A stretch of 33,970 bases of DNA from Nitrospira japonica. GTDB taxonomy: Bacteria > Nitrospirota > Thermodesulfovibrionia > Thermodesulfovibrionales > SM23-35. Shown here one piece after another: positions 759 through 9,786 of the stretch; the first letter of the stretch is position 1, and each line of letters starts with the position of its first letter. The notes under the pieces were generated by a model. It had not been told where the DNA came from, did no database searches, and was given only the letters and a program-made list of their open reading frames with translations. Location: contig DYFC01000042.1 in the NCBI GenBank assembly GCA_020725385.1, forward strand, positions 1 to 33,970, in the 5' to 3' direction. The translations under genes and the position numbers were made by a program.

Positions 759-2330
759 ATGTTGAATTTTAAATTAAAAACCTTTCTTATATTGCACGGA
801 CCCTCAATAATTTCGGGGTTATTGCTGATATTATGCTTCCCGAAACCTGAACTATATTATCTTGCATGGATAGCTCTTGTTCCATTCTTAATTTCTTTGT
901 ACAATAAAAAACCAAAACAAGCGTTTTACTCCGGTTTTTTGCTGGGTATTCCATACTTTTTTGGTACCCTTTACTGGATCTACCACTCAATAAATCATTA
1001 TGGTGGCGTTTCATTTTTAGGTAGTCTTTCTATAGTGGTTTTACTCTGTTTTTATTTAAGCATATATACAGGTATATTCGGTTTTATTTTCTCTTTAACC
1101 ATTCAAAATACCAAACTTCCCGGTCTTATACTTGCTCCTGTTTTCTGGGTTGTATGCGAGTTTATAAGGTCCTATGCCTTTACAGGTTTTCCATGGTCGA
1201 GTATAGGGTATTCTCAAGTTAAATTTTTGTCAATTATACAAATCGCCGATATTACAGGTATTTATGGTGTTTCTTTTTTAATCCTGTCTGTTAACGGTGC
1301 TATATCAGATGTTATTTTATTAAAAAAACGTGTTAAAACCATACCACTTTTTCCGAAATATCAATTCTACCTATGGTTAACATCTTTATGTATTCTAATT
1401 TCAATATCATTTCTTTACGGTCAAATCAAGCTAATACAGGAAAGACCAGGGAAAACTATTACAGCAGGTATTATTCAAGGAAATATTGAACAGGATAAAA
1501 AATGGGATTCTTCTTACCAAAATGAGGTCATAAACATTTACAAAGAACTTACACTTGACGCCTCTAATAAAAAGCCAGACATTATTATCTGGCCTGAAAC
1601 TGCATTGCCTTTTTTCTTTGGAGAAGATATTTCACTTACTAATAATATCGTGGAATTCCAAAAAAATCTTTCTACTAACCTATTATTTGGAACAATCCTT
1701 TTCAAAGATAAAAAAAAGCAGCCTTTTCAACTTTCAAATAGCGCTGTCTTACTCGATGAAACTGGAAAAGTAATTTTTATATATGATAAAATACATATGG
1801 TACCTTTTGGGGAATATGTTCCTCTTAGAAAAATCCTTTTTTTCATTGATAAATTAGTCACAGGCATAGGTGATTACACACCGGGTAAAAGCTACATTAA
1901 AGCTAAAAGCTCAGCAGGAAACTTTGCTGTGCTAATTTGTTACGAAGTAATCTTTCCCGGTCTTGTAAGAAAGTTTTTTACAGATAACGGTGATTATATA
2001 GTAAATATTACTAATGATGCATGGTTTGGAAAAACATCGGGTCCTTACCAGCATTTTAGCATGGCTGTTTTTAGGGCTATAGAAAATAGAAAACCAGTTA
2101 TAAGAGCCGCTAATACAGGAATATCCGGATTAATAGATAGTAATGGTAAAATAGTAGCTAAGACAGATTTATTTCAAAGAACATTTTTAATAGAAAGGTT
2201 CAAAACAGATAGTACAAAAAGTTTTTATTCTAGATATGGAGATTTGTTTTCTTATTTTTGCATTATTTTTACTGTTATATTAATCTCTAATTTATCTACT
2301 AAACTTAAAAATTGTTTTAAGGAGGTTTAA
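759..2330 (+). CDS. lnt: Apolipoprotein N-acyltransferase
   Basis: Multi-TM N-terminus, TGFPW motif, QGNI, and the nitrilase triad WPE / YDKIHMVPFGEY / ICYE, followed by NITNDAWFG and RAANTGIS. Confidence 0.97.
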   Translation: MLNFKLKTFLILHGPSIISGLLLILCFPKPELYYLAWIALVPFLISLYNKKPKQAFYSGFLLGIPYFFGTLYWIYHSINHYGGVSFLGSLSIVVLLCFYLSIYTGIFGFIFSLTIQNTKLPGLILAPVFWVVCEFIRSYAFTGFPWSSIGYSQVKFLSIIQIADITGIYGVSFLILSVNGAISDVILLKKRVKTIPLFPKYQFYLWLTSLCILISISFLYGQIKLIQERPGKTITAGIIQGNIEQDKKWDSSYQNEVINIYKELTLDASNKKPDIIIWPETALPFFFGEDISLTNNIVEFQKNLSTNLLFGTILFKDKKKQPFQLSNSAVLLDETGKVIFIYDKIHMVPFGEYVPLRKILFFIDKLVTGIGDYTPGKSYIKAKSSAGNFAVLICYEVIFPGLVRKFFTDNGDYIVNITNDAWFGKTSGPYQHFSMAVFRAIENRKPVIRAANTGISGLIDSNGKIVAKTDLFQRTFLIERFKTDSTKSFYSRYGDLFSYFCIIFTVILISNLSTKLKNCFKEV

Positions 2331-2331
2331 A

Positions 2332-3430
2332 ATGCTTATTCAGGAAGAGCTTAAAATAGATATATCCGGTCTTAAGGAGAAAATTGAATCTTTACGAGGT
2401 TATCTTTGATATACCTGCCCTGAAAAAAGAAATTGAAGAAATATCTCAAAATTTGGCACTTAATGAAATATGGTCTTCTCCACAAAAAACTAATGAACTT
2501 TTAAAGAAAAAATCAAAGCTTTCTGATTTAGTACTGCATTTTGAAAATTTATCTAAAAAATTAATGTATCTTGAAGAATCTATTAGCATTCTTGAAGAAG
2601 AAAGTGGAGAGCTATTTCTAAAAGATATTCAAAGCGAAATTACAAATTTAAGAAACGAAATAGACTCGCTTGAAATAGAATATCTTCTTTCTGGTGAAAT
2701 GGATAAAAACAATGCAATTTTAACAATACATCCGGGTGCAGGGGGTGTAGAAAGTCAGGATTGGGCTCAAATGTTACTTAGAATGTATTTGAAATGGTCT
2801 GAAATGCATGGTTTTAAGATAACTATAGCCGAGATTCAACCCGGCGAAGAAGCTGGAATAAAGAGTGCAACAATTTCTATTTCAGGACCATTTGCGTACG
2901 GTCTTTTAAAATCTGAAGTAGGTGTACACAGACTTGTAAGAATTTCTCCTTTTGATGCAGGAAAAAGAAGACATACATCTTTTGCTGCTGTACTTGTTTA
3001 TCCGGAAGTTGAAGATAATATAGATATCCTCATAAAAGATGATGATATTAAAATAGACACATTCAGGGCATCAGGTGCAGGAGGCCAACATGTAAATAAA
3101 ACTTCATCGGCAGTAAGAATTACACATATTCCTACAGGAATTATCGTTAGCTGCCAGAATGAACGTTCACAGCACAAGAACAAAGCTATCGCTCTGAAAA
3201 TATTAAAATCCCGTCTTTATGATATTAAATTAAAAGAAAAAGAAAAGAAACTGGAGGGATTCATTGGTGATAAAAAAGGAATATCATGGGGAAGTCAAAT
3301 AAGGTCATATATACTTCAACCTTATCGTATTGTAAAAGATCATAGAACTAATTACGAAACAAGTAATGTCGATTCTGTACTTGATGGAAATATTGATGAT
3401 TTTATAAAAGCTTTTTTGAAAAAAAAGTAA
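2332..3430 (+). CDS. prfB: Peptide chain release factor 2, expressed through a programmed +1 frameshift at 2404-2410
   Basis: ATG at 2332 follows SD AAGGAGG inside the end of lnt. Frame 0 reads MLIQEELKIDISGLKEKIESLRGYL then TGA; the +1 frame continues DIPALKKE... with RISPFD (SPF) and GAGGQHVN (GGQ) motifs. Confidence 0.97.
2396..2410 (+). promoter_or_regulatory. RF2 autoregulatory +1 frameshift cassette
   Basis: GAGGT (internal SD), TAT, CTT TGA T, matching the established prfB SD-N3-CTTTGA signal. Confidence 0.95.
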
Positions 3431-3647
3431 TTCTTAATAAGGCCTTGAACTCTACTATTACTTATATATTAAAAATAAAAATTAGCTGGAGTAGTAGGTA
3501 TTGTTTATTTGTTAAAAGACGATGAATCATATTGAAAGATAAAAAGAAAATTTGTTGGTAGATTATTAGATTTTAAGACTCTTTTTTAACTATTATTAAA
3601 AAGAAATTTTTTCTACAAAATAACAAACATGATACTAACTAAAAAGC

Positions 3648-3677
3648 TTGTGTTAGTTGTTAACATTAAGCTATAAT
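3648..3677 (+). promoter_or_regulatory. Putative sigma70 promoter of dnaA
   Basis: TTGTGT (3648-3653), 18 nt, perfect TATAAT (3672-3677), about 65 nt upstream of the dnaA ATG. Confidence 0.5.
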
Positions 3678-3697
3678 TGTAAACTTCCCGTAAAAAG

Positions 3698-3728
3698 TTA
3701 CTAACATTTGTTAGTAAAATGTTAATAA
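3698..3728. repeat. Cluster of three 9-mers, putative non-canonical DnaA boxes
   Basis: TTACTAACA (3698-3706), tt, TGTTAGTAA (3709-3717, perfect inverted copy), aa, TGTTAATAA (3720-3728). The repeat is directly visible; the function is inferred. Confidence 0.65.
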
Positions 3729-3740
3729 ATAGAGTAAAAA

Positions 3741-5072
3741 ATGTCTCTTGAAGAAATTTGGAACGATATTTTAGTAAAAATAGAGGAGAGAGTAGGCAAA
3801 AGCACTATTAATTTATGGTTTAAGCCTATAAAACTCTTCCAGATTAAAGAACAGCAAGCTACTCTTGATATTCCGAATAGATTTTTTAGGGATTGGATAG
3901 AAGATAACTATCCTGACATGCTTCCGGAAATATTTAATTACGTATTGGGACATCCTGTCGGTATAAAGTATAGAATTGTTGAAAAAGTTGACCCTGATAT
4001 AAAGAAAAAAGATATGAAAATGGAAAACCGCAGGCAGAAACTTGCAAGCAGAGGTATATACCTGAATCCGAAATATACATTTGAAAATTTTATAATAGGT
4101 CCGAGCAACCAATTTGCTCAAGCAGCTGCAAAAGCTATTGTAGAGTCCCTGGGAAAAGCATATAATCCTCTTTTTATTTATGGAGGCGTAGGGCTCGGAA
4201 AGACACATCTTATTACCGCGATTGGCAATGAAGTAATTGATAGAAATCAAGATATGATAGTTATTTATGTTTCTGCAGAACAGTTTACAAATGAAGTAGT
4301 TTCGGCTATCAGACATGAAAAAATGGCTGAGTTAAAAGAAAAATATAGAAACGTTGACCTTCTTTTACTGGATGATATTCATTTTATTGCTAATAAGACT
4401 CAAACACAGGAGGAATTTTTTCACACATTTAATGCAATTTATGAAAGACAGAAACAGATAGTTATCTCAAGCGACAGACCGCCAAAGGAAATAGGAGCAA
4501 TAACAGATAGACTCAGATCAAGATTTACAATGGGCTTAATAGCCGATATACAGCCTCCAGAATTTGAAACTAAACTTGCTATAATTCAAAAGAAAGCAGA
4601 GCTTGAGAAGATTGCAATACCTGATGACATTGCACAATATATTGCTTCTAAAGTGAAATCTAATATTAGAGAACTTGAGGGTTGTCTGATAAGATTGGGG
4701 ATGCAATCTTCGTTAACAGGAAAACCAATAGATATTGAAATGGCAAAAAATGTGCTTAAAGATCTTATAGAAGACGAGGAAAAACCAATCTTACCCGAAT
4801 ACGTACAGAAAATAGTTTGCGATCACTTCGGGATTAAAACGAGTGAAATAAAAGCTAAGAAAAGAAATAAGGAAATTGCTATACCGAGACAGGTAGCAAT
4901 GTATATCACAAAGCAGACAACAAATCTTTCACTTAGCGATATAGGCAAAAACTTCGGGGGCAAGGATCACGCAACAGTAATATATGCTTGTAAACAAGTT
5001 GAGGAAAAGCGTGCTAAAGATGAAGCTTTTAATAAAATGGTTGAAGGTCTTCTTAAAAAGATAAAAGCATAG
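3741..5072 (+). CDS. dnaA: Chromosomal replication initiator DnaA
   Basis: YNPLFIYGGVGLGKTHL Walker A, LLLLDDIHF Walker B, QEEFFHTFN, RLRSRF, NIRELEG, and domain IV GGKDHATV. Confidence 0.99.
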   Translation: MSLEEIWNDILVKIEERVGKSTINLWFKPIKLFQIKEQQATLDIPNRFFRDWIEDNYPDMLPEIFNYVLGHPVGIKYRIVEKVDPDIKKKDMKMENRRQKLASRGIYLNPKYTFENFIIGPSNQFAQAAAKAIVESLGKAYNPLFIYGGVGLGKTHLITAIGNEVIDRNQDMIVIYVSAEQFTNEVVSAIRHEKMAELKEKYRNVDLLLLDDIHFIANKTQTQEEFFHTFNAIYERQKQIVISSDRPPKEIGAITDRLRSRFTMGLIADIQPPEFETKLAIIQKKAELEKIAIPDDIAQYIASKVKSNIRELEGCLIRLGMQSSLTGKPIDIEMAKNVLKDLIEDEEKPILPEYVQKIVCDHFGIKTSEIKAKKRNKEIAIPRQVAMYITKQTTNLSLSDIGKNFGGKDHATVIYACKQVEEKRAKDEAFNKMVEGLLKKIKA

Positions 5073-5110: not shown

Positions 5111-6253
5111 ATGAAGTTCAATGTCAGAAAAGAAGAGATGCAGGAAAAACTTTCAAATATTCAGAATATTATTGAAAAAAAGAACACAATGCCAATACTA
5201 AGCCATTTCCTGTTAAGTGCAGGCAAAAAGGATTCTTATATAATCGCAACTGATATAGAAACTGCGTTAAAAGAGCCTATTGACTTAACTGTTGAAAAAG
5301 AAGGTAGAATTTGTATCCCTGCAAAAAAGCTACTCGAAATTGTGAGAGAAATTGATAAAGACCTATCAATTGAAACAGTTGATGAACAATGGCTAAAAGT
5401 TAAAGCAGGCTCAAGTGAATTCAGGCTGGCAACGCTCCCGCATATTGATTTTCCTGCATGGCCTGCGGTTTTTGAAGGGCAAGATATAGAAGAAATATTG
5501 ATTGCTCCCGGACTTTTGCTTGAAATGATAGAGAAAACACTTTATGCAGCAGGTGAAAATGACACAAGATACACCCTTAATGGACTTTTATTTCATATTA
5601 AGCCGGATGAGAAAACCCTGAGTATTGTTGGAACCGATGGTCACAGACTTGCTTTTATACAAAAGCAAATAGATAATGATAAACTCAATATTAATGTGAA
5701 GGAAGAAAAAAGGTTAATTATGCCAAGAAAGGCGGTATCAGAGTTAAGAAGATTTCTGCCATTATCCGGGGATCAGAATGAAACTACAAAGGTTAAGATA
5801 ACTCTGGGGCCGAAACATATTCTATTTAATATAGCCAATATAGAGTTTTTATCAAGGCTTGTAGATGGCACATATCCAAATTATGACAACGTGATACCGA
5901 AAGAAAATGAAAAAACACTTATTATAAAAAGGGATAATTTTATAAAGGTTCTTCGCAGAGTCTCAATAATGTCGAGGGAGAGAGCGAGTGCTGTAAGATT
6001 TGATATAGATTCTGACAGAATGTATGTTTCTTCATCGAGCCCTGATATTGGCGAGGCAAAAGAAGACATGGAAGTCGCATTCAACGGGGAAAAAATAACT
6101 CTCGGTTTTAATGCGAAATATCTGTTAGATGTTGCTGGTGCTATGAATGGAGAAAAGATTTTACTTGAACTACAGGATCCGCTCAGCCCGGTTCTTTTAA
6201 AGGAAGAGGGAAGCGAGGATTACAAATGTGTTGTCATGCCTATGAGGATATAA
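5111..6253 (+). CDS. dnaN: DNA polymerase III beta clamp
   Basis: 380 aa following dnaA, with TMPILSH, TRYTLNG, GTDGHRL, GFNAKYLLD and C-terminal VVMPMRI; strong SD. Confidence 0.99.
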   Translation: MKFNVRKEEMQEKLSNIQNIIEKKNTMPILSHFLLSAGKKDSYIIATDIETALKEPIDLTVEKEGRICIPAKKLLEIVREIDKDLSIETVDEQWLKVKAGSSEFRLATLPHIDFPAWPAVFEGQDIEEILIAPGLLLEMIEKTLYAAGENDTRYTLNGLLFHIKPDEKTLSIVGTDGHRLAFIQKQIDNDKLNINVKEEKRLIMPRKAVSELRRFLPLSGDQNETTKVKITLGPKHILFNIANIEFLSRLVDGTYPNYDNVIPKENEKTLIIKRDNFIKVLRRVSIMSRERASAVRFDIDSDRMYVSSSSPDIGEAKEDMEVAFNGEKITLGFNAKYLLDVAGAMNGEKILLELQDPLSPVLLKEEGSEDYKCVVMPMRI

Positions 6254-6269: not shown

Positions 6270-8660
<2,391 letters not shown>

Positions 8661-8751: not shown

Positions 8752-9039
8752 TTATTTCTTACCTAAAATTGCATCTTTTGCAGCTTTTGCTACACGGAAT
8801 TTAACAACTTTCTTTGCAGGTATTTTAATGATTTCACCGGTCTGAGGATTTCTGCCTTTGCGGGCTTTACGCTGAACAAGTACTATTTTTCCGAGGCCCG
8901 GCAATGTGAATGAGTTCTTTGCTTCTTTGTAAGCCAGTTTTGCGATTTCATCAAGAATCATTGCAGCCTGCACTTTCTTGATCTCAGCTTTTTTTGCGAT
9001 GTGGTCAGCGATTTGAGACTTTGTCATTGGTTTTCCCAT
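8752..9039 (-). CDS. hup: HU family DNA-binding protein
   Basis: 95-aa basic protein with MTKSQ start and RKARKGRNPQTGEIIKIPAKKVVKF arm; SD AAGGGAGG. Confidence 0.95.
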   Translation of the reverse strand: MGKPMTKSQIADHIAKKAEIKKVQAAMILDEIAKLAYKEAKNSFTLPGLGKIVLVQRKARKGRNPQTGEIIKIPAKKVVKFRVAKAAKDAILGKK

Positions 9040-9190: not shown

Positions 9191-9321
9191 TCTATTTTAA
9201 TAAAAAAATCGAAAAAATTGAATTAGAAAAAATGATTTGGACACTTGAGCAACAAAATGGTATATTAATCTGGAAGGATAATTGGAATCAGAATAATAAG
9301 ATTAAATTGAGGAGAAAATGT

Positions 9322-9786
9322 ATGATTGGTAGAAATGATAAAGCCTTTATTTTAATAAAGGGCATTATTTTGTCACTATTGAGTATTATTGTATCTTTAA
9401 TTCTAATTTCATGTGGCGGTAGCAAGGAAGTCAAAAAAGCTTCTGAAGAATCAAAAGTTGCCCGGGAGGCATTTGAACTTGCAGAAATCCTTAGAAGTGC
9501 TTATGAAAAAAAGGATATGAAAGAGCTTGAAGAAAATTCTACAAGCAATGGTTATAGAGAATTGCTCACAGTGATGAAAAAATTTGATAAAGCCTCTTTG
9601 AACTTTACACCAACATGGGTAGAAATACATGAAACAAAGGTTTTACTCTCTGTCTCCTGGAAAGGCATATGGACAGTTAATGGAAAAGAGTCAGAAGAAA
9701 GAGGTCTTGCTGTTTTTGTTTTTCAGGGCAAACCCTTAAAACTCGAGCAGATTCAGAGAGAAAACCCTTTCAGACAACCTGAATAG
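9322..9786 (+). CDS. Hypothetical lipoprotein
   Basis: Start moved to ATG 9322 (SD GAGGAG at 9309-9314). A hydrophobic signal ends in lipobox LISC-GG; 154 aa. Confidence 0.8.
   Translation: MIGRNDKAFILIKGIILSLLSIIVSLILISCGGSKEVKKASEESKVAREAFELAEILRSAYEKKDMKELEENSTSNGYRELLTVMKKFDKASLNFTPTWVEIHETKVLLSVSWKGIWTVNGKESEERGLAVFVFQGKPLKLEQIQRENPFRQPE

Follow-up and report, generated by a model that had tools for sequence, protein, structure and literature searches.

A candidate replication origin between prfB and dnaA

The window analyzed here is the entire 33,970-base contig C40 of the source genome G000 (2.46 Mb, 71 contigs, 96.6% complete), which belongs to the order Thermodesulfovibrionales of the Nitrospirota, and our subject is the gap that separates prfB from dnaA, the gene for the replication initiator. 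The genes lnt, prfB, dnaA, dnaN and gyrB follow one another in this order, all on the + strand, and the window DnaA is a full-length match to TIGR00362 at 556.9 bits, above the curated cut-off of 343.9. At 310 bp (3431-3740), the prfB-dnaA gap is the only large gap beside dnaA, that between dnaA and dnaN measuring 38 bp. We propose that it is probably a chromosomal oriC fused with the promoter of dnaA; its putative DnaA boxes have A instead of the usual C at position 6 (called A6 boxes below, as opposed to C6 boxes).

The strongest of these boxes form a group of three at an 11-bp pitch: TTACTAACA at 3698-3706 (+), its exact inverse TGTTAGTAA at 3709-3717 (-) and TGTTAATAA at 3720-3728 (-). Weaker copies, at 3510-3518, 3553-3561, 3583-3591, 3617-3625, 3632-3640, 3651-3659 and 3657-3665, extend to the far side of the gap (Table 1). 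A preliminary description of this DNA, made from the sequence alone, had listed these strong and weaker boxes and had claimed that no canonical box accompanies them; our re-reading bears out every position and reading. The pattern TTWTNCACA does not occur in the gap, its four occurrences in the window lying at 4417, 14004, 15140 and 24077, and none of the 9-mers in the gap comes within one mismatch of the canonical box TTATCCACA, while two come within two mismatches. The gap boxes lack the C at position 6 of the CACA core. TTATTAACA departs from TTATCCACA at positions 5 and 6, and TTACTAACA departs from it at positions 4, 5 and 6. A search that tolerates at most one mismatch to TTATCCACA misses every box in the gap, as had been expected of standard origin predictors. 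The bare motif count is not significant, since the 3 copies in the window compare with 1.66 expected and 3 were reached in 25 of 100 shuffles; the signal above chance is clustering and conservation, not motif count.

Table 1. Features of the prfB-dnaA gap and its neighborhood, in window coordinates.
Feature	Position	Strand	Remarks
lnt	759-2330	+	neighbor upstream of prfB
prfB (class-2 release factor)	2332-3430	+	directly 5' of the prfB-dnaA gap
CTACTAT, inverted copy of TAGTAG	3452-3458	+	at least 60% conserved columns in 18 order relatives
AT-rich stretch, putative DNA unwinding element	3459-3482	.	23/24 A/T; distal to the trios, as in Bacillota controls
DnaA-trio-like repeats TAG CTG GAG TAG TAG	3483-3497	+	TAGTAG columns conserved order-wide
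Spacer GTAT, 4 nt	3498-3501	.	from trios to proximal box
Two boxes sharing one base, TGTTTATTT and TGTTAAAAG	3502-3518	-	conserved TGTTnnnnTGTTnAnAA columns; TGTT-to-TGTT offset 8
Box TGTTGGTAG, reverse complement CTACCAACA	3553-3561	-	matrix score 9.2; columns conserved
Degenerate box TTTTTAACT	3583-3591	+	conserved TTtTnAaca columns
Degenerate boxes AAAATAACA (3617-3625) and ATACTAACT (3632-3640)	3617-3640	+	conserved aAcA and TAACA columns; adjoin the -35-like hexamer on its 5' side
Putative dnaA promoter: TTGTGT (3648-3653), 18-nt spacer, TATAAT (3672-3677)	3648-3677	+	
Box-like TGTTAGTTG/TTGTTAACA	3651-3665	+	inside the promoter spacer
Three strong boxes, 11-bp pitch	3698-3728	mixed	between -10 and ATG; slot kept in 28/28 order relatives
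dnaA, 443 aa	3741-5072	+	TIGR00362, Pfam domains, alignment to 1j1v_A
DnaA S399	4935-4937	+	E. coli P423
DnaA A411	4971-4973	+	E. coli T435
DnaA Y415	4983-4985	+	E. coli H439
dnaN	5111-6253	+	
gyrB	6270-8660	+	

A putative unwinding module at the upstream end of the gap

The upstream end of the gap holds a module that resembles the basal unwinding system (BUS), which is defined, in the sections of PMC8287927 drawn on here, as one or more DnaA boxes, a spacer of at most 16 nt with a peak at 10-13, at least three trios reading 3'-GAT-5' and an AT-rich stretch. The trio repeat of the window, 5'-TAG-3', is 3'-GAT-5' when read in the opposite direction, and GAG TAG TAG at 3489-3497 provides three consecutive NAN trios (N being any nucleotide), the best of them 3'-GAT-5'. 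The AT-rich region lies distal to the trios, and the boxes are oriented toward them. In the tandem pair that faces the trios, the proximal box stands 4 nt from the first trio and the distal box 12 nt; the corresponding spacers of relatives are G-rich, for example GGGG or GGAG. Each box of the pair has 4 mismatches to TTATCCACA, against a published BUS limit of at most 2, and the distal box has 2 mismatches to the lineage consensus described below. At the equivalent place, locus L010 carries a perfect TTATTAACA.

The upstream regions of 18 of the 28 order relatives, aligned with MAFFT, share one order-wide architecture: CTACTAT, the AT-rich stretch, the trios, the spacer, the tandem boxes, more boxes, the promoter pair, a CC-rich patch and the three strong boxes. 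A strict regular expression that combines TAGTAG with tandem boxes has a single match in the 2.46-Mb source genome, at this gap. A looser expression matches 13 of the 28 order loci, each time 216-260 nt before the ATG, and degenerate versions of the module are seen in the alignment for the other order loci. The dnaA-dnaN gaps of Bacillota controls hold TTATCCACA, a weaker box, a GC cluster, CTA repeats and an AT-rich stretch, an arrangement recovered by regular expression in 7 of 9 loci examined, with a 12-nt spacer in 6 of these 7 and an 8-nt offset between the boxes that was read by eye. The Nitrospirota module is the reverse complement of this arrangement, except that TGTG is replaced by TGTT. 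Because the order, orientation and spacing of its parts match the Bacillota basal unwinding system, the gap is most likely an oriC combined with the dnaA promoter.

The likeness extends to the incC BUS of B. subtilis (DnaA-box 6/7, trios and AT-rich stretch), in which a short G-containing spacer, a weak box and a better box follow in the same order and orientation. As in Bacillota, 12 nt separate the better box from the first trio, and the two boxes are offset by 8 nt, again as read by eye. Unlike its B. subtilis counterpart, the window module lies upstream of dnaA rather than between dnaA and dnaN, has a conserved inverted CTACTAT beyond the AT-rich stretch, and has one non-NAN triplet that breaks its trios.

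With the CTACTAT copy (3452-3458) on one side and TAGTAG (3492-3497) on the other, the putative unwinding element lies between trio-like repeats of opposite strands; we found no box beside the left CTACTAT copy. In two of the Bacillota control loci, L049 and L066, the weak trio-adjacent box of the dnaA-dnaN gap reads ATGTTAACA and ATACTAACA, respectively, so that A6 boxes at the trio-proximal position also occur in Anoxybacillaceae with a canonical DHTT DnaA.

Box spelling across the order and the phylum

DnaA was detected in all 30 order relatives searched, and 28 of their loci were used; L029 and L038, in which the 5' end of dnaA is truncated or split, were left out. Of 121 Nitrospirota genomes sampled, 119 had a DnaA match, and 20 dnaA loci from outside the order were read. 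All 28 order loci hold the three-box element box(+)-N2/3-box(-)-N2-box(-) in the dnaA leader. With a regular expression that fixes ACA at positions 7-9, restricts position 6 to A or C in boxes 2 and 3 and leaves it free in box 1, the 84 leader boxes have A at position 6 in 80 cases, C in 2 and G in 2. Position 5 is T in 72 of them, C in 10 and A in 2, and position 4 is T in 52 and C in 32. The resulting order-wide consensus is TTAYTAACA, with A6 in place of C6, T at position 5 and T or C at position 4. The look at dnaA-upstream regions of relatives that the preliminary description had suggested thus finds its motif conserved. Relatives also repeatedly hold a box at about -188 to -198, which matches the box at 3553-3561.

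An unbiased count of TTWTN[x]ACA within 400 nt upstream of dnaA, where x is position 6, gave A 73, C 5, G 4 and T 4 for the 28 order loci, A 30, C 25, G 0 and T 3 for the 20 loci of other Nitrospirota, and A 57, C 327, G 32 and T 36 for 70 non-Nitrospirota control loci, mostly Bacillota. Elsewhere in the phylum, the slot homologous to the three leader boxes reads TTATCCACA/TGTGTATAA/TGTGTATAG in L151 and TTATTCACA/TGTGAATAA/TGTGGATAG in L152, and 13 further out-of-order loci have a mix of A6 and C6 boxes there. The lineage-variant boxes of the order occupy the slot in which related genomes hold consensus DnaA boxes, and the three-box element and the trio module are found phylum-wide, with a mixed box type outside the order. 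Mutational bias or base composition is an unlikely cause of A6, because the relative G025, at 42-47% G+C, keeps TTATTAACA in all three of its leader boxes.

In four loci (L025 of G030, L016 of G013, L027 of G023 and L028 of G024) the leader boxes stand 60-165 nt before the called ATG rather than the usual 20-45, and the extra stretch of L025 contains a GC-rich inverted repeat; the longer leaders reflect either a leader insertion or a mis-called start.

Base-reading residues of DnaA

Alignment of the window DnaA with the E. coli domain IV chain 1j1v_A (HMMER) places S, D, H, A and Y at P423, D433, H434, T435 and H439, as had been described from the sequence alone, and shows R399 to be kept. These six positions are the base-reading residues named in the consulted parts of PMC7561715, PMC2533591 and PMC5043019; three of the six are changed, and the full E. 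coli-type set is not conserved. The 28 order genomes, which span 13 families, never have P at 423 but S, N, G or A; at 435, 26 loci carry A and 2 carry S, and all 28 carry Y at 439. The 18 loci from other classes all have P423, together with T or S at 435 and with H at 439 in 15 cases and Y in three (L150, L153, L154). In the two loci that represent other orders of this class, position 423 is A or S, position 435 is S and position 439 is H. In a quick DnaA tree with a midpoint root, class and order each form a single clade, with Shimodaira-Hasegawa-like approximate likelihood ratio test (SH-aLRT) supports of 99 and 95. In this comparison A6 comes near to fixation at the level of the class, alongside the loss of P423, and A435 and Y439 were gained later, at the base of the order. 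The same tree places four Bacillota outgroup sequences inside the Nitrospirota, beside the Thermodesulfovibrionia clade (support 84), which is probably an artefact of a single-gene tree.

The preliminary description proposed that initiator and origin had co-evolved a lineage-specific box, and it suggested checking the motif for covariation with the DHAT versus DHTT signature of DnaA. The lineage-specific TTAYTAACA spelling is conserved, and three of the six base-reading residues differ; the tie between A6 and DHAT did not hold. In the homologous three-box slot, position 6 is A in 13 boxes and C in 14 among out-of-order loci with the canonical residues P, T and H at 423, 435 and 439 (10 against 14 without the mis-registered L158), and lineages with P/S/H have 8 A against 4 C. 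Two P/S/Y loci differ from each other, L150 having A6 boxes only and L153 C6 boxes only. L141, with a DHTT DnaA, has A6 boxes next to its trios, and the order members L032 and L033, with DHST, have A6 boxes exclusively. Conversely, C6 (TGTG-type) boxes adjoin the trios of L013 and L021, two members of the order that share the domain IV motif of the window. Because A6 boxes are common in the same slots under P/T/H residues, A6 appears to be accepted by canonical DnaA in this phylum. Moreover, it was in a single clade that A6 became fixed and the residues changed, so that any covariation rests on one nested history. We infer that the shift in preference toward A6 accompanies the residue changes; a cause-and-effect re-coding is not proven, and a link between DnaA residues and A6 boxes looser than the one first proposed is plausible.

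Box clusters and GC skew

A lineage matrix trained on the three leader boxes of these loci returns the region upstream of dnaA as the top cluster of the source genome (5 hits, sum 60.9), ahead of the next cluster at 44.0 and of a reversed-matrix control at 41.4. In the complete relative G078 (1,935,540 bp), it is again the top cluster, with 7 hits and a sum of 73.5 against 37.4 for the next and 36.9 for the control. With this matrix, then, the densest cluster of DnaA boxes lies beside dnaA in both genomes. Other lineage-box clusters of G000 remain at the level of the control; four were inspected, and three of these fall within long open frames. We also considered the clusters of canonical boxes in G000 (C29:113288 and C26:1903) and in G078 (532,586) as origins and rejected them, as none exceeds 4 hits and all are located in long open frames.

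The whole-genome skew of G078 was corrected for coding strand and resolves an origin to about 100 kb. Its coding-strand GC skew of 0.136 is about 8 times its replication-strand skew of 0.016, and there is no clear switch in gene orientation. The fitted terminus lies at 0.53 Mb, and the delta chi-square at dnaA is 4-9. These values are compatible with an origin at dnaA and are not proof of one; the GC skew that the preliminary description had asked for is weak here and places the origin only within about 100 kb of dnaA (see below). Because replication skew is weak and G078 shows no clear orientation switch, skew-based prediction of origins is unreliable in this lineage. Two module-like matches of the regular expression near the G078 skew minimum were discarded, being located within open frames. 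For the complete genome G025, twenty samples of 20 kb gave a GC skew that mainly reflects the coding strand and was uninformative.

Comparison with known DnaA boxes

One close parallel is found in Thermoanaerobacter tengcongensis, whose published box consensus TTATCNACA allows non-C bases at position 6 and for which an oligonucleotide with TGTTGATAA plus TGTGGATAA was used in electrophoretic mobility shift assays (EMSA), according to the portion of Pei et al. 2007 (PMC1888806) used here. As in our window, the origin described in that portion lies directly upstream of dnaA, with the last boxes overlapping the dnaA promoter. Position 6 is variable in that species, whereas in the order A is nearly fixed there, with T at position 5 and Y at position 4. 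The window DnaA differs from that of E. coli at three base-reading residues.

The Epsilonproteobacteria offer a second case of a lineage-wide spelling, in that the sections of PMC5043019 considered here give a class-specific box TCATTCACN with the core TTCAC. The same sections report, among DnaA proteins of epsilon- and delta-proteobacteria, three residues at 435 (S, T or A) and three at 439 (K, H or Y), and the DnaA of this group varies at 423, 435, 438 and 439. In contrast to the order, however, the change in Epsilonproteobacteria affects positions 2 and 5 and keeps C6, and footprinting has demonstrated binding in that class, the boxes of Thermodesulfovibrionales being predicted from sequence. 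The review PMC4285127, as far as its cited passages go, lists as variants of the perfect box TT(G/C)TCCACA in Actinomycetes, TGATCCACA in Caulobacter and AAACCTACCACC in Thermotoga, most variants lying 1-2 bases from TTATCCACA, and states that DnaA and its boxes have co-evolved. None of the variants listed in those passages alters position 6, unlike the boxes of the order. Among the non-consensus boxes whose affinity a preprint on phage T5 gives as unknown are TTATCAACA and TTATTAACA. Our literature search found nothing on DnaA boxes or oriC of Thermodesulfovibrio or the Nitrospirae, the supplements of PMC8287927, which possibly contain predictions for Nitrospirae, lying outside its coverage.

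Proposed mechanism and alternatives

Based on the arrangement of these elements, we propose that ATP-DnaA would bind about ten 9-mers between 3502 and 3728. The box pair at 3502-3518 would then seat a DnaA filament on the + strand TAG trios at 3483-3497, and this filament would open the AT-rich stretch (3459-3482). In addition, DnaA could repress its own gene through the three strong boxes, which stand between the -10 hexamer and the ATG. The putative promoter itself is conserved, its columns CTTGTnTT and TATAAT being at least 80% conserved in the 18-sequence alignment, and boxes flank these -35/-10-like hexamers; a sigma-70 consensus scan did not call this + strand promoter, the -35-like hexamer matching in 3 of 6 positions.

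Several observations weigh against this assignment. Both trio-proximal boxes score below 8 bits on the lineage matrix in the window, and the trios there are interrupted, leaving only three contiguous NAN trios. The strict module expression misses the dnaA-upstream region of G078, where a degenerate version stands. Three of the hits in each top cluster are the training sites themselves and are present by construction. Genome-wide enrichment of TTAYTAACA, which had been suggested as a check, is absent from the source genome (119 copies against 165 for the reversed control) and from G078 as well, and we have dropped it as a criterion. Because lnt and prfB are co-oriented with dnaA, gene orientation does not switch at the gap. 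Finally, dnaA of G078 is located at 1.566 Mb, whereas the origin favored by the two-breakpoint fit is 75-115 kb away, at 1.45-1.49 Mb.

That displaced fit would suit a different reading, in which the boxes serve only for autoregulation of the dnaA promoter and replication starts at another site, perhaps one missing from the 71-contig assembly. The incomplete assembly leaves room for it, and five of the boxes stand around or 3' of the conserved -35/-10-like hexamers. Against autoregulation of this kind stands the module of trios, tandem boxes and AT-rich stretch, which lies 240 bp upstream of the ATG, recurs order-wide and does not belong to a promoter. In G078, moreover, no other box cluster rises above control level, no canonical cluster is present, and the module-like matches near the skew minimum fall inside open frames. 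We therefore regard autoregulation alone as unlikely. We give still less credence to the idea that the palindrome TTACTAACA-TT-TGTTAGTAA is not a pair of DnaA sites but the operator of another regulator, a dimeric one, or a hairpin formed by the RNA of the dnaA leader. In its favor, the window copy is a perfect inverted repeat (9+9) and sits between the -10 hexamer and the start codon. Its halves, however, are identical in just 11 of 27 order loci and in 3 of 15 distinct pairs, and the differences between them, at the degenerate box positions 1, 3, 4, 5 and 6, are not compensated. Such differences are easier to reconcile with monomer sites that act independently than with an RNA stem or the operator of a dimer. 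A third box follows the palindrome at the same 11-bp pitch, and in other Nitrospirota the palindrome slot holds textbook DnaA boxes. The source genome has 5 TAACA-N2-TGTTA sites, with full 9-mers solely at dnaA, so that a second full palindrome copy, and hence a regulon, is not apparent there; an Rfam search gave no match at E up to 1. Taken together, these points make an operator or a hairpin very improbable.

A further alternative concerns how far the initiator itself has changed. In its strictest form, re-coding would mean that P423S, T435A and H439Y make this DnaA prefer A6 and no longer TTATCCACA, so that protein and box are a changed matched pair. Half of the published base-reading positions are altered, position 423 is never P and position 439 always Y throughout the order, and the leader boxes, where the strongest sites are expected, are A6 almost without exception, even at the higher G+C content of G025, while Bacillota controls are overwhelmingly C6. 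Against this stand the near-equal numbers of A6 and C6 boxes under P/T/H residues in the homologous slot, the A6 boxes of L141, L032 and L033 and the C6 boxes of L153, the TGTG retained beside the trios of L013 and L021 despite a domain IV motif identical to that of the window, and the confinement of all residue changes to one clade. The boxes of T. tengcongensis, which follow TTATCNACA, and the combination of A6 and C6 in one EMSA oligonucleotide point the same way, at least in the part of PMC1888806 cited above. Strict re-coding is thus a tentative idea that we doubt. With similar reserve, we note that Thermodesulfovibrionales DnaA might have switched its preference to T:A for C:G at position 6, with a relaxed position 4, by way of P423 loss, T435A and H439Y. 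If such a switch occurred, it would provide a natural initiator-origin pair partly orthogonal to the canonical pair of DnaA and TTATCCACA, and it would identify residues that set specificity at the otherwise most constant position of the box.

An oriC with A6 boxes bears on a recognition code that is usually taken to be near-universal at its CACA core. In this case an entire order, whose members are widespread in the environment and include thermophilic sulfate reducers and magnetotactic Nitrospirota, spells this core AACA, and together with the three differing contact residues this amounts to a natural experiment on DnaA specificity. The graded pattern, with mixed boxes in the phylum, fixation in the class and residue changes thereafter, makes the lineage a useful case of initiator and origin drifting together. 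On a practical level, the TTAYTAACA matrix and the TAGTAG trio module should aid origin annotation in Nitrospirota genomes and metagenome-assembled genomes in which GC skew is too weak.

Neighboring genes

Three further features of the window lie outside the gap. The prfB gene, which starts 1 nt past the lnt stop (2330), has a classical programmed +1 frameshift site: its ATG at 2332 opens a 25-codon frame that reaches CTT TGA at 2404-2409, downstream of which the long prfB frame resumes in +1. On the - strand at 8752-9039, 3.7 kb from the putative origin, an HU/IHF-like gene has HU-beta and IHF-alpha as its best NCBIfam matches, all of them under the cut-offs. It is followed by an open reading frame of 184 aa at 9232-9786 (+), for which Pfam and NCBIfam gave no match.

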